Below are positions 40,401 to 46,400 of a stretch of 64,000 nt of DNA, piece by piece. The position numbers are program-made. The stretch's first letter is position 1; each line of letters starts with the position of its first letter. Origin of the DNA: Escherichia coli. GTDB lineage: Bacteria; Pseudomonadota; Gammaproteobacteria; Enterobacterales; Enterobacteriaceae. The stretch is taken from assembly GCF_041248615.1 (NCBI RefSeq), contig NZ_CP158426.1; one strand, written 5' to 3'.

Positions 40401-43400
40401 TATCCGGTGATAAAAACCCGAATTGGAAGGGTGGGAAAATCGAAAAGGTTTGTTCCGTATGTGGCAGGCAATATCAGGTTAAGCGAGCCAACTCATCTTC
40501 AAGGTTCTGCTCACTTCAGTGTGTAGGAATTTCACAGCGAGGCAAGACGGTAAATCGGGAACTAAAGCGAGTATTAAAAATATGCTGCGTATGCGGATCT
40601 TCGTTCTCCGTTTTCTTGAGTCATGAGAAGCGTCATAAATGCTGCTCGAAACAGTGTTCCAACATAATGCGTTCTTCTCTGATGAAGGGGGAAGGAAATC
40701 CAAACTGGTCTGGTGGATTATCGAGATTGCCGTATCCGTGGGATTTCCGAGAAACGAGCAAGAGGGTTATTGAGCGAGATGGTTTTACTTGTCAGAACCC
40801 AGGTTGTGATGGAACAGACAAAAGGCTAACAACTCATCACATCAATTACGACAAGCAAGACTGTCGTCAGGAGAACCTTATTTGCCTTTGTTCGAGCTGT
40901 AACTCGAAGGCTAATTTCGGTCGGCATAAGTGGCAAAAGTTTTATGAATCACTGATGAAAAATAGATCGGCATGAATCGACGATCTTTTTAGTTATCAAT
41001 GTAATCAATAAGTTATGCGGATAAGCGAGGGTAAAGATGGAAAGTAATATCAAAGGGTTAGTTGCCGCCGGGCATGAGATGGCTTCGGAACTGAAAGCAG
41101 AATGTGGTGCCGTTGATATGCGTAGTGTGGCAAAGCTGATCAGCGATTTGGCAACGCAACTGGAAGTGCAACTGGTGCGTGCTAATGCGCTGGCCGAAGA
41201 CCAACAGAAAGCGATTGAGTCAATTAAGCAGGCTGATTCGGCTGTTAAGTTGGCACACGAGAAGTTTTCGGCGCTGGCAGCGGAGAATGCAAAGCTGAAG
41301 AAGTTCTGCAAAGACGCTGCATTCGATGCCGATTACGAAGCAGAGCTAGGTATGGAGAGAGGTGGATTCAGTGATGCGCTTAACGAAATCAAAACCCCAG
41401 CCACCGATGCTTTCCTGGCTGAAGTGCGGGCGCAGGGCGTGGATGCTGCTATAGAAGCTGCAAAAAATCTGGTGGCCCAAGAATATGAGTATAAGGATTT
41501 CAAAGCGGCGCAGAGTGATTGCTGTATGCACCCTGGTTCAGACCTGGTAGGGAAGGTTGAAATAACTGAGTGGTTAGTTGACTTTGCTGCCCAGCTTCGC
41601 AAAGGAGGCAACCAGTGACTGGACATGCAGCAATCCTCGACATGTGCTGTGGCAGTCGCATGTTCTGGTTCGATAAGAATGACGACCGGGCGATATTTAG
41701 CGATATCAGAAAGGAAGAGCACACATTGTGTGATGGACGACGGCTGATAATTAGCCCTGACCTGATAGCAGATTTTCGTGCATTACCATTTGCAGACGCA
41801 TCGTTTCCGGTTGTTGTATTCGACCCTCCGCATCTTGAGCGTGTTGGTGATAACGCTTGGATGGGAAAGAAATATGGACGGCTGAATAAAGATACCTGGC
41901 GTGATGATTTGCAGCAGGGATTTAAAGAAGCCTTTCGTGTGTTGTGGCCATACGGCGTTCTGATTTTTAAATGGAATGAAACGCAAATACCTGTTCGCCA
42001 AATATTGGCACTGACCGACAGAAAGCCTGTTATCGGTCAACGAACAGGAAAGGGTGACAAGACCCACTGGATTATTTTTATGAAGGAGGGCAACCAGTGA
42101 GCAAAATTGACTATCAGGCACTGCGTGAAAAGGCAGAGAAAGCAACGTGTGGTGTGTGGTCGCTCGAATATGGAGAGAGCCGATTTGATTGTGATGATGC
42201 GCTAATTCATCGTGACGTTGTTGGATATCTTCCCATTTGCAGAATTGAAGGAGCGCATCCTGAAAGCGGTTTCGATGAAGATTTCCAGATGGAACAGCAG
42301 GCCAATGCTGAATTTATTGCTGCCTTTAATCCAAAGGTTGCTTTGGCACTACTGGATGAACGGAAAAAAAACCAGCAATACATCAAATCCCGCGACCAGG
42401 AGAACGAGGATATTGCGCTAACGGTAGGGAAGCTGCGCGTTGAGCTGGAAGCAGCAAAAAAGCGCATAGCAGAACTGGAGAAAAGCGAAGAGCAACTCAT
42501 CAACGAGCGTGACCATGCTGAGTCTGCTTTAGCTGATATGTACTTTGCAGCAACCGGGGATAGGCCTGAGTGGAGTAACTGGTTCGGCTTTTCAGATGCC
42601 GTCGATGCCGTAGTTGACAGAATTGCTGATTTAGAAGCTAAACAATGCATTGAAGAGATGAGTAAACAAAGTTGCGAAGCTCGGGAGCGTGATTTGTTTG
42701 AATCATGGGTAATGCATTCAATTTGTATTTCCAAATCGACGCTTGAAGGATTGCGCACCGAAACTGGATACCGTAACGCGACCTTATCAGGAACAGACTT
42801 CAACCGCATGTGGGAACAATGGAAATCTATCCGCGCCGCTGGCATTCGCATCAAAGGAGAGTGATATGACCACTATAACCGATAAGAAACAGTATCCCAG
42901 CGAGCAATATCTTAATGAGCTGATCACCAACATAGAGTTTGCTGCAAGGGCACCAGTTGAAGTCGTGAGAGCGATGGCAGCAGAGCTACAGAAGCGGCGC
43001 GAAGCTGATAGTGCAGAACCTGCAAGTAATCATGAAGAGTTGCCGCTTGATTATCTCCAAGGTCAAAAAGATGGTCTTGAATGGGCTGCGCAGCTTGCAG
43101 AAGCAAATCACCCACAAACTGGCGACTGGCTTTACGATGACCCGCTGGAGCTGGCTAAAGCTATCAGAAAAGGTCCTGACATGCCCGAATTCGATGGACC
43201 AACTCCGGTAACTCCGGATGGTTGGATAAGCTGTAGTGAGCGAATGCCCGCTCAAGATGATTGGATTTTAATTTATTCAAAGCACGGCGAGTATATGGCA
43301 GGACAGGTACAAGGGGAATACGTGGAGTTGAGCGACGGCACTTTATCGTGGTTAGGGAACGCCTTGTACTGGATGCCTCTACCGGAACCGCCGCAGGAGG

Positions 43401-46400
43401 TTAACCGTGGCTAACCTGCAACTAGCCGTTAAAGGTGAATACTTCGATGCCATCATTCGCGGAGAGAAAACGGAAGAGTATCGCCTGTGTAATGACTACT
43501 GGAATAAGCGAATTATGTTCAGGGATTATGACCGACTGATTATCACAAAGGGATATCCGAAGCGCGACGACTCCAGTCGTAGAATTGACGTCCCGTATGA
43601 CGGATATGAAATCAAGACAATCACACATCCCCACTTCGGCGATAAACCGGTAAAGGTATACGCGATAAAGGTAAATATTGATGGCTAAATCAGCAGCAGA
43701 GCGCAAAGCCGCTCAGAGAGCCAGACAAGCTGCATCTGGTGTGCGTAAGCTGGAGATTGTGCTTGATGCTCAGGAAATTGAAATGCTGGAGCGTAACTGC
43801 GCCGCCCGGCGCCCTGGTCGAGATCCCTATGAAATGGCCGAGTACATCGCGCTGCTGATCCGCCAGGATGATGCCCGGGTGCGCGGGCGTATAAAATCGA
43901 TCAGCAGAAAACGTTGCGGTAAGTGCGGCGAGAGAGTTCCAGTTAATTCATGCCCGTGCAATGGTGACTCGCAATGCTGGGTGACTAAAGGCTGGCATGA
44001 AACGAAATTAATAGTGTGACATGTCACGAGTAGATTATGCATGATGAATTTGATGTGTTTTGAATACTGCCGCCAACTATGGCGGCTTTATTTTGCATGG
44101 TACTATTACCACAACGGTAACTATTACCACGGTGGTTATGATGCCTGCTGAACCTAAAACCTATAAACGCAAATCAACGCAATTTAAGCCACTAACAGCA
44201 ATGCAGGAGGCTTATTGCCAGTCATACATCAAAACGCCTGAAAACCAGACTCAGGCAGCGATTAACGCAGGATTCTCCCCAAATACAGCGGCAGTTAAAG
44301 CCAGTGTCATGATGCGCGATGAACGCATTCAAAAACGGATTGCCGAGTTGATGGAGGAGCGCAACAAACGAATGCGCGTCAGTGCTGATTACGTTCTCAT
44401 GCGCCTGGTGGAGATCGACCAGATGGACGTGATCGATATCCTCAACGACGATGGGAGCCTTAAACCAATCCGTGAGTGGCCGAAAATCTGGCGCACTACG
44501 CTTAGTGGCTTTGATCTGTCATCGACCATCATGAACATGAACGAGGATTCGATAGAGACAATCCTCAAAAAAATTAAATGGCCTGACAAGGTGAAGAACC
44601 TCGAACTGATTGGTAAGCACGTCGACGTCAACGCATTCAAAGAACGCCTGGATGTTAATGTGAATGTGACAATTGCTGATCGCATAGCGGCAGCCAGGAA
44701 GAGACTGAAAGAACGTCAGGATGGCAATCAGTGACAGATACAGCGTTATCTCCTGAAGAGCAGTTAATCGAGGATATTGCAGGGTTCACTCACGATCCGC
44801 TTGGCTATGCCCTCTATGCGTTCCCGTGGGGGGAAGAGGGTACTGAACTGGCACATGCCACCGGTCCACGTCAGTGGCAGGCCGATGCGTTCCGAGAGAT
44901 ACGTGATCACCTGCAGAATCCAGAGACGCGATATCAGCCGCTTATGCTGGCACGTGCTTCTGGTCACGGTATTGGTAAATCCGCATTCATCTCAATGCTG
45001 ATCAACTGGGGCATGTCCACTTGCGAGGATTGTAAGGTCGTGGTGACCGCCAACACCGACAACCAGCTACGAACGAAGACCTGGCCGGAAATTATCAAGT
45101 GGTCGAACCTTGCTATCACGAAAGACTGGTTTACCTGTACCGCTACCGCGATGTACAGCAATGACCCTGGGCACGACAAGCGGTGGCGAGCTGACGCAAT
45201 CCCCTGGTCTGAGCACAACACTGAGGCATTCGCCGGACTACACAACGAGCGCAAACGCATCATCGTGGTATTCGACGAAGCATCCAACATTGCCGATCTG
45301 GTGTGGGAGGTAGCAGAGGGTGCGCTGACGGACGAAGACACTGAGATTATCTGGGTGGCATTCGGAAACCCTACACGTAACACCGGGCGTTTCCGCGAAT
45401 GTTTCCGCAAATATAAACACCGCTGGAAAACTGCGCAGATTGACAGCCGGACGGTGGAAGGCACTAACAAACAGCAGTTGCAGAAATGGGTTGATGACTA
45501 CGGGGAAGACAGCGACTTCGTTAAAATCCGTGTGCGCGGCATATTCCCGGATGCATCTGAATTGCAGTTTATCCCTACCGGCCTTACTGACGAGGCAATG
45601 AAACGGGTGGTAACCGCTGCGCAGGTTGCACATGCTCCGGTGATAATCGGCGTTGACCCGGCATACTCCGGCGTTGATGACGCTGTGATATACCTGCGGC
45701 AGGGGCTGCACAGTAAGGTGCTATGGACTGGTAACAAGACCACCGACGATCTGATTATGGCGAAGCGTATCGCTGACTTTGAAGACCAGTACCAGGCTGA
45801 CGCAGTGTTCATCGACTTCGGTTACGGAACTGGTCTGAAGTCAATCGGTGATGGCTGGGGACGTACATGGCAACTTGTTCCGTTCAGCGGTGCGTCCACT
45901 GACCCGCAGATGCTTAACAAGCGTGGGGAGATGTTCAACTCATGCAAGACATGGCTGAGGCTGGGCGGCATGCTGGATGACCAGGAAACAGCAGACGACC
46001 TGTCGGCGGCAGAGTACAAAGTTCGAGTGGACGGTAAAATCGTTATCGAACCGAAGGAAGATATCAAGGAGCGGCTTGGGCGTTCTCCTGGTAAAGGCGA
46101 TGCGCTACTGCTGACGTTTGCGTTCCCTGTGTCGAAGCGTCTGCGAATTCCCGGGCAGCAGAACCAGCAAGGCAAGGCCATCACAGATTACGATCCATAT
46201 GCTTAATCCGCTGGTGGGGATAATACTGCTGATATCCTCTGGTGAGGATAAAACAAAGCCAGCTCATCGGCTGGCTGTTTGTGACATGTCACGGTGTTAT
46301 TGCTCGCTTAACTTCTGCTTCAGCAAGTAACCTTCGAGCATCCAGATTTTGTTTACAGCATTCTGCCGGGCAATCTTCCGACCAATTTCTGCATCAAAAT

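Follow-up and report, generated by a model that had tools for sequence, protein, structure and literature searches.

Two gene junctions of an Escherichia coli prophage carry copies of one short linker, which is probably a conserved boundary sequence of the 'ea' accessory region of temperate enterobacterial phages, that is, a translational-coupling junction at which genes are exchanged by homologous recombination. The junctions lie in a 64,000-nucleotide (nt) stretch of E. coli DNA (RefSeq assembly GCF_041248615.1, contig NZ_CP158426.1), here called the window, within an epsilon15/phiV10-like prophage (Uetakevirus). J1 joins an Eae-like gene to a DNA methyltransferase gene, and J2 joins the methyltransferase gene to an Ead/Ea22-like gene. 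The same linker is found between many unrelated pairs of genes, the points at which related loci diverge cluster at it, and loci that hold a gene between two linker copies can be paired with loci in which a single copy closes the site. A preliminary description of the window had proposed that J1, J2, and a third junction, J3, between the genes for the small and large terminase subunits (terS and terL), share a conserved linker between unrelated cargo genes that are shuffled as modules by short-homology recombination. For J1 and J2 this proposal is borne out by the gene partners, by breakpoints at the 3′ edge of the linker, and by the filled and empty sites. J3 falls outside it.

The linker at J1 and J2

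The linker, AAAGGAGGCARCCAGTGA, comprises a Shine–Dalgarno sequence, a spacer, and a GTG start codon that overlaps a TGA stop codon. At J1, an exact copy, the open reading frame (ORF) at 41037..41618 ends in ...KGGNQ-TGA and the ORF at 41615..42100 opens at the embedded GTG. J2 has one G more than J1; here the ORF at 41615..42100 ends in ...KEGNQ-TGA, the ORF at 42097..42864 opens at the GTG, and the linker supplies the final three codons of the methyltransferase (G-N-Q) together with its stop. The two copies agree over 12 nt without a break, and at 18 of 19 positions if one insertion or deletion is allowed. As first described, all three junctions combine a ...G(G)NQ-stop ending with a GTG start inside CAGTGA; at J1, J2, and J3 alike the genes are co-directional and the overlap is GTGA. 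AAGGAGG was reported just upstream in two cases, and these are J1 and J2 only, where it lies 6–7 nt upstream; J3 has a weaker AGGA 9 nt upstream. The intervals given for J1 and J2 were correct, and that for J3 ended one base short of the stop codon (44734).

The full linker is longer than the 12-nt core. It extends ~30 nt upstream and encodes an A-x-Q-L-R-K-G-G-N-Q tail, and downstream it usually runs on into a 31-nt conserved start of Ead/Ea22 genes. No inverted repeat or hairpin is present within 60 nt of J1 or J2, and no promoter-like or terminator-like site was found at either junction. RNA folding at the junctions is no better than that of shuffled controls (z = -0.88 and -0.37 for J1 and J2, and 0.07), and an Rfam scan of positions 38000-47000 returned only a tRNA and sub-threshold noise, with no match at the junctions. 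A structured RNA at the junctions is ruled out by these folding scores and by the absence of an Rfam match.

Gene partners and distribution

Viral contigs were scanned for exact matches to AAAGGAGGCARCCAGTGA, so that the resulting counts are selected on the linker itself. At least 120 stretches of viral contigs hold the exact 18-mer, among them the genomes of HK97, HK620, and phiV10. Flanking DNA was clustered over 210 nt upstream, skipping the 30 nt beside the linker, and over 210 nt downstream, skipping 40 nt. The 126 instances listed fall by this procedure into 19 families upstream and 31 downstream, which pair in 80 different ways. At the protein level, the downstream partners in the instances listed belong to at least 11 families. 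Besides the Ead/Ea22-type and methyltransferase families, these include nine groups without known function, several of them represented by a single sequence. Single-linkage clustering of the upstream proteins gives at least four families, some of whose members share the C-terminal tail alone; because this procedure merged too much, it was replaced by the DNA clustering, which excludes the tail. Comparison of related prophages thus gives the outcome expected of a shared joint, with the same linker joining many unrelated upstream and downstream genes.

A 64-nt query composed of the tail, the linker, and the Ea22 start matches 263 phage records (Escherichia, Stx-converting, Salmonella P22-like, and Shigella phages, P1, and large phage-plasmids) and 1780 of 5426 complete E. 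coli genomes, with up to 7 places per genome and 312 places on plasmids; partial matches to one or other half of the query are counted in these figures. When the exact 18-mer is sought in one genome per species (100,044 species), only 28 matches are found, one in an Escherichia sp. and 27 scattered over unrelated phyla. By our own calculation, about 17 would be expected by chance for an 18-mer with one two-fold position in 298 gigabases on both strands. Since the matches elsewhere are so near to chance, a wider taxonomic spread of the 18-mer is rejected, and the linker belongs to the gene pool of Escherichia, Shigella, and Salmonella temperate phages. One record, PP818812.1, is listed as a phage of Actinobacillus pleuropneumoniae, an unexpected host, and carries an E. 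coli-type linker and Ead/Ea22 start at 94.8% identity.

Conservation and breakpoints in a sample chosen without the linker

A sample that does not depend on the linker was obtained by fetching 80 loci with the body of the Eae protein, its last nine residues excluded; 78 were usable. The linker is kept where the same upstream genes recur in other phages: the Eae-family gene ends in the exact 18-mer in 58 of the 78 loci and in CAGTGA in 63, and a wide variety of genes begins straight after the TGA. Together with the recurrence of the 18-mer in viral contigs, this count places J1 and J2 far outside chance expectation. Among 62 distinct contexts anchored at the stop codon, the consensus reaches 80–99% over a block that begins ~30 nt ahead of the stop and ends with it (GCYGMNCAGCTTCGCAAAGGAGGCAACCAGTGA), and it drops to ~50% on either side of this block. 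The main polymorphism, AAC/AGC, alters an amino acid while synonymous positions are fixed, and conservation is therefore at the level of the nucleotides.

The position of divergence was located in 483 pairs of loci with the same upstream and unrelated downstream sequence, pairs that are not phylogenetically independent. Divergence starts 0–3 nt after the TGA in 255 pairs, at -11 (after AAAGGAG) in 33, and at +8 in 45. In most of the remainder it starts at +16 to +40, the end of the conserved Ea22 start block. An alternative junction is also found behind the Eae tail (loci L133, L177, L196, L204, and L003, the last being phage ZX5). It reads cgcaaaggagTKCRKTCATGA, with an ATGA overlap and the tail RKGV(R/Q/H)S-stop, and the point at which it switches falls inside the Shine–Dalgarno sequence.

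Cassettes and the methyltransferase gene

A 15-nt core of the linker, GGAGGCARCCAGTGA, is present in two or three copies in many loci. In 28 cases a single cassette lies between two cores that are 241–1665 nt apart, the architecture of J1, methyltransferase gene, and J2 in the window, and ten of these two-core loci provide pairs of filled and empty sites. The empty counterpart of the window is L154, where one linker joins the 3′ end of Eae directly to an Ea22-like gene; the two loci are 99% identical over 200 nt on the upstream side and 91% identical over 200 nt on the Ea22-like side. A second pair is L048 and L065, whose flanks show 100% identity over 400 nt or more to the left and to the right and which differ by exactly one 683-nt cassette and one copy of the linker. 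The crossover that separates them is confined to 28 nt of identity, AGCTTCGCAAAGGAGGCAACCAGTGAGC.

The methyltransferase gene itself (96–98.6% identity) is found behind five different upstream families and is always followed by a J2-like linker and an Ea22-type start. A Stx2c-converting lambdoid phage has the same trio of Eae, methyltransferase, and Ea22 genes at 95.9% identity. More distant homologues, in Salmonella phage Oslo and in Klebsiella prophages (73–75% identity), cease to resemble the gene of the window towards either end and are without the linker; their native C termini are IFVKD-stop in Oslo and IFVKGAGK-stop in a Klebsiella phage. Because the distant homologues end in this way, the G-N-Q-stop with J2 is linker sequence joined to a native ...ATGAAGGA end and not part of the ancestral gene.

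Whether the methyltransferase gene is a simple insertion relative to phage PAS61 was also considered, and this holds only in part. The junction between Eae and Ea22 genes in PAS61 has a single linker, but the 3′ half of Eae and the body of Ea22 differ from those of the window. As an empty site, L154 is the better counterpart. In phage ev099 (L006), an Ead/Ea22-like gene ends in AAQLRKGGNQ-stop, and behind it stand just the opening 90 nt of the methyltransferase gene (2501-2589; 94% identity), with unrelated sequence beyond; this fragment is a putative remnant of a partly replaced cassette.

The terS–terL junction

J3 resembles the linker in the 12-nt core alone; upstream of it only 4 of 12 positions match. 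With at most one mismatch allowed, 0.38 matches to GGCAACCAGTGA are expected per window, so that J3 is unremarkable by sequence statistics. The window contains three instances of the degenerate 12-mer where 0.10 would be expected, but this pattern was drawn up afterwards from those same sites.

Comparison with orthologous junctions leads to the same view. The overlap of terS and terL reads ggYaatcaGTGA in E. coli relatives, ggtgaccaGTGA in a Klebsiella relative, and ggtgaagaATGA in epsilon15, SPN1S, Tyrion, and BUCT554. Thus the junction drifts at the pace of the flanking coding sequence, and its partners are always terS and terL; in nine Uetakevirus genomes there is no conserved junction with varying flanks or partners of the kind that marks a boundary sequence. 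Nor are the two genes cargo, as had been supposed, for they encode essential packaging functions. J3 as a third copy of the linker is therefore rejected on the evidence of its orthologues and of the chance expectation. It is best explained as an ordinary, vertically inherited overlap whose resemblance to J1 and J2 would reflect chance and a common layout in which GTGA comes after a G-rich ribosome-binding site.

Proposed mechanism and alternatives

As RNA, the linker would act as a translational-coupling junction, with a strong Shine–Dalgarno sequence (AAGGAGG), a spacer of 6–7 nt, and a GTG overlapping the upstream TGA. Because of these elements, any ORF behind it may be translated within the operon, and translation of the downstream gene would depend on the coupling. 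The frame of the linker also adds the ...(Q-L-R)-K-G-G-N-Q tail to the upstream protein. Since the same 18–33 nt, often with the Ead/Ea22 start block behind it, is found at several junctions within one phage and in many phages, the linker could offer a patch of identity for swapping, inserting, or deleting whole genes undamaged. Exchange would proceed by homologous recombination within 12–28 nt of identity, or up to ~65 nt where the Ea22 start block is included. Candidate catalysts are the Rad52-like annealing proteins of phages, such as the RecT/exonuclease pair of this prophage, or host RecA. In experiments (PMC3945230; PMC2327257), Rad52-like phage recombinases were shown to produce mosaics between lambdoid phages and prophages through relaxed homologous recombination, and to do so independently of RecA. 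The sequence might be held constant by the requirements of translational coupling, reinforced by repeated exchange, and the methyltransferase gene of the window is a cassette of this kind, set between the Eae and Ea22 genes with a copy of the linker on each side.

The literature's main alternative (PMC3233612) is illegitimate recombination at any position followed by selection for intact genes, in which case the junction would be an inherited Ead/Ea22 start beside an Eae tail and not a site of crossover. This alternative gains from the prevalence of Ead/Ea22-type genes among the downstream partners (76 of 121 at the protein level, among the instances listed), from the presence of GGAGGCARCCAGTGA on most Ea22-type starts, and from the many upstream partners that fall in one loosely linked protein cluster. 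It is nevertheless unlikely, since the identical nucleotides precede at least nine families unrelated to Ea22, the methyltransferase among them, and follow upstream proteins that share the tail alone. Random joining would not remake the same 18–28 nt in 80 combinations of flanks, nor does it fit the identical flanks of L048 and L065 or the replacement of the methyltransferase's own C terminus by the linker. A different possibility is that all three junctions are alike through shared constraints, a purine-rich ribosome-binding site and an overlapping GTGA, and chance, with no common history. Overlapping start and stop codons are common along this operon, and the idea suits J3, where the match is limited to the 12-mer, is within chance expectation, and differs at the orthologous junction in other genera. 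As an account of all three it is very improbable: J1 and J2 are identical also in the unconstrained spacer CAACCA and at synonymous codon positions, and for these two it is refuted by the exact copies of the 18-mer between unrelated flanks in hundreds of phages. In species-representative genomes outside Escherichia the 18-mer occurs at a frequency near chance.

Cassettes between short direct repeats bear a superficial resemblance to integrons and transposons, and an HNH endonuclease gene lies ~650 nt upstream (40367..40975), so that the linker might be imagined as a site recognized by specialized machinery for moving the cassettes site-specifically: an integron-like attC with its integrase, a transposon end with target-site duplication, or the target of a homing endonuclease. 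There is very little to be said for such a system when J1 and J2 are without inverted repeats, hairpins, or unusual folding, when the linker-flanked cassettes are single ORFs that carry no recombinase, and when the HNH gene is missing from PAS61, ZX5, and TL-2011b, yet PAS61 has the linker. The crossovers themselves are variable, with upstream identity that covers the 18-mer only or a further 15 nt or more and with downstream breakpoints at several positions, which argues for exchange driven by homology and not for a fixed site of cleavage. Conservation of the nucleotides beyond the needs of the K-G-G-N-Q tail, with synonymous sites fixed while AAC/AGC changes a residue, could also point to a regulatory RNA, either structured or bound by protein, that would serve for example as a translational operator or a processing site. 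The folding, Rfam, and inverted-repeat results make this scarcely credible, and ribosome-binding function together with recombinational homogenization would suffice to explain the conservation.

Several considerations weigh against the interpretation of the linker as a site of homologous exchange. Both the recombination and the enzyme that would perform it are inferred. The pattern-based census was selected on the linker, and the 483 breakpoint pairs are not independent in phylogeny. The linker is the native start region of Ead/Ea22 genes, and part of its recurrence may for that reason represent common descent and selection for ribosome binding rather than use in crossover. The 12 nt common to J1 and J2 are short for efficient exchange, and the donor of the methyltransferase gene may therefore have offered longer homology and passed on both linker copies along with it. 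Finally, comparison of the window with PAS61, ZX5, and phiV10 reveals a finer mosaic that includes several other patches of 30–60 nt, so that the linker is not the unique joint.

A second recurring junction, ATCAAAGGAGAGTGA[T/G]ATG, stands after Ea22-like genes and before differing genes in the window (42846-42868), PAS61, TL-2011b, ZX5, and HK620; sites were located at L001 ~3785-3809, L002 ~3588-3612, L003 ~3997-4021, and the hkaG–hkaF junction of HK620. This looks like another boundary sequence. Window positions 43368-43409 and 43203-43248 are short patches with 86–100% identity to relatives and unrelated sequence between them; one is the C terminus of DUF551, CCGGAACCGCCGCAGGAGG (LPEPPQE), followed by differing genes, and the other is a 46-nt internal part of DUF551.

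Comparison with known systems

The idea that short boundary sequences, or linkers, guide the evolution of lambdoid phages is set out in PMC3233612, which cites Susskind & Botstein 1978 and, for HK620, Clark et al. 2001. A boundary sequence in this sense is a short sequence conserved at the edge of a gene or module, with flanks that differ between phages, and is proposed to be a focus of homologous recombination (PMC3233612). The J1/J2 linker likewise is conserved between unrelated flanks, occurs in differing combinations of genes, and coincides with breakpoints, though in pairs that are not independent. A direct connection is provided by phage Sf6, whose record (AF547987) annotates bsq1-3. The element bsq3 (19844-19874), TGAGCAAGATTGACTATCAGGCACTGCGTGA, lies at the start of gene 21, a gene with an Ead/Ea22-type start whose product carries no annotation beyond its similarity to 933W L0069. 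Positions 42098-42128 of the window match it at 30 of 31 nt and overlap the TGA of J2. The match covers the 3′ neighbour of J2 and not the Shine–Dalgarno sequence or spacer; these, with the GTGA and the upstream tail, lie just 5′ of bsq3 and are absent from Sf6. The full linker is present in HK620 at the hkaH–hkaG junction. A further difference is one of setting, since boundary sequences of this type belong to lambdoid and P22-like phages and the linker here lies in a Uetakevirus prophage. A full-text literature search for GGAGGCAACCAGTGA, GGAGGCAGCCAGTGA, and RKGGNQ returned only an unrelated primer, the boundary sequences of Clark et al. 2001 being outside the comparison. The linker is thus one more example, and a well-populated one, of an element of known type and not a new mechanism.

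Translational coupling of this form is familiar from the ninR region of lambda, which Kroger & Hobom (1982) are said to have described as a 'chain of interlinked genes' with translationally coupled, overlapping stop and start codons (ATGA/GTGA). J1–J3 and several other junctions in the window share with such strings of genes the 4-nt overlap, the Shine–Dalgarno sequence inside the upstream coding sequence, and repeated use along an early operon. Ordinary coupled junctions, J3 included, differ for each pair of genes and evolve with them, whereas J1 and J2 are one portable sequence set between unrelated pairs. The 'mobile regulatory cassettes' of T4-type phages, reportedly named PeSL by Arbiol et al. 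in 2010, consist of an early promoter and a stem-loop. Like PeSL, the linker is a short conserved expression signal repeated between accessory genes and provides homology for modular shuffling; unlike PeSL, the junctions have no promoter, terminator, or stem-loop, and what recurs is a module made up of a ribosome-binding site and the start/stop overlap.

The cassettes also recall those of integrons, in which single promoterless ORFs stand in arrays bounded by a recurring short sequence, but the linker is not an imperfect palindrome as attC is, the phage integrase is the only integrase seen, and the crossover points vary. A further parallel is found in the Rad52-like recombination systems (Red-beta, RecT, Erf) of temperate phages and prophages of E. 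coli, which leave traces of homology at mosaic borders (PMC2327257; PMC3945230); the prophage studied here has a RecT and an exonuclease of its own. The homology regions used in those studies are far longer, with a stated length of 3353 bp, compared with 12–28 nt here, or at most ~65 nt with bsq3 included.

Since 1978 there has been debate over whether the mosaicism of phage genomes arises by homologous exchange at short linkers or by random joining with selection afterwards. The linker provides a clean natural test case, being exact over 18–28 nt, flanked by dozens of families, available as filled and empty sites with identical flanks, and often accompanied by a RecT-type recombinase in the same phage. 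It could be used in assays of exchange and as a marker for cassettes of prophage accessory genes, of which the DNA methyltransferase of the window is one. A bolder proposal, which is rather improbable, is that the linker is a selected, self-maintaining 'plug-and-play' joint, an analogue of the integron based on homology, in which a ~30-nt module would both ensure expression of any incoming ORF by translational coupling and serve as a preferred crossover for phage annealing proteins. Were this proposal correct, such a joint would sustain a pool of accessory genes that E. coli, Shigella, and Salmonella phages of at least four temperate lineages (lambdoid, P22-like, Uetakevirus, and P1-like phage-plasmids) hold in common. 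The query for the linker and Ea22 start matches about one third of complete E. coli genomes, partial matches to either half included.

Prophage setting

The window from 40900 to 46300 is 95–98% identical, piecewise, to PAS61, ZX5, TL-2011b, O157 typing phages 9 and 10, and phiV10. Gene content between the replication genes and terS varies among these close relatives and constitutes the variable accessory region of the phages. The principal features are collected in the table below. The Eae-like gene belongs to PHROGs 492/614/368, of unknown function, and its homologues in PAS61 and ZX5 are annotated Eae/EaE. Separate segments of the Ead/Ea22-like gene match 20 PHROG families, which indicates that this gene is internally mosaic.

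Table. Features of the prophage and of the three junctions (window coordinates; a blank cell means that no entry is available)
Feature	Position	Strand	Description
Phage integrase, arm-binding domain	31867..33117		Only integrase seen; ~8.5 kb from the junctions
RecT-family single-strand annealing protein	34662..35543	-	PF03837, E=8e-32; PHROG 561, E=1e-145
PDDEXK exonuclease (RecE/exonuclease VIII-like)	35540..36361	-	Partner of RecT; PF12684; PHROG 412 'exonuclease VIII', E=1e-125
Replication initiator	38302..39117		HTH_36 and DnaT domains
HNH endonuclease ORF	40367..40975		202 amino acids; PHROG 1271, E=4e-23
Eae-like accessory gene	41037..41618	+	193 amino acids; ends ...FAAQLRKGGNQ-stop; upstream partner of J1
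Upstream extension of linker	41586..41600	+	GCTGCCCAGCTTCGC, codons A-A-Q-L-R; common to many otherwise unrelated upstream genes
J1	41601-41618	+	Exact linker copy AAAGGAGGCAACCAGTGA: AAGGAGG, spacer CAACCA, GTG over TGA
S-adenosylmethionine-dependent DNA methyltransferase	41615..42100	+	161 amino acids; PHROG 954, E=9e-88; single-gene cassette between J1 and J2
J2	42083-42100	+	Linker copy AAGGAGGGCAACCAGTGA; one G more than J1
Ead/Ea22-like gene	42097..42864	+	255 amino acids; PF13935, E=3.8e-31; downstream partner of J2
Conserved Ead/Ea22 gene start	42098..42128	+	TGAGCAAAATTGACTATCAGGCACTGCGTGA; 30/31 nt identical to Sf6 'bsq3; boundary sequence'
DUF551 protein gene	42866..43414
PHROG-625 protein gene	43407..43688
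Putative regulator gene	43681..44019
terS, terminase small subunit	44141..44734	+	PF03592, E=1e-29, and annotation of homologues; ends ...RQDGNQ-stop
J3	44723-44734	+	GGCAATCAGTGA at the 4-nt overlap of terS and terL; terS ends ...DGNQ-TGA, terL starts at GTG
terL, terminase large subunit	44731..46206	+	Annotated in PAS61, TL-2011b, ZX5, and epsilon15; 81–98% DNA identity
Head-tail connector gene	47578..49257

Additional features of the region lie apart from the junctions. The HNH ORF stands between a DUF1064 gene, with which it has an ATGA overlap, and the Eae-like gene; because it is absent at this place in PAS61, ZX5, and TL-2011b, it may be a homing-endonuclease insertion. A strong, terminator-like hairpin at 44069-44086, GCCGCCAACTATGGCGGC followed by TTTATTTT, separates the regulator gene from terS, and in phiV10 a terminator is annotated within the matching segment. 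Translation of terS probably begins at the ATG at 44141, since a version starting at the upstream TTG would contain the hairpin. Just past terL, but inside the prophage, the minus strand carries a tRNA-Arg gene (anticodon TCT, 46853-46929). The prophage has a second DNA methyltransferase gene, at 33312-33962 on the minus strand (PHROG 359, E=3e-120). Iteron-like direct repeats, five or six in number (core CCCAAAAACGGGA, at a spacing of 18–24 nt), lie at 38556-38708 within the ORF of the replication initiator and probably mark the phage origin of replication. Upstream of the integrase gene, a plus-strand ORF of 2680 amino acids extends from 18922 to 26964.

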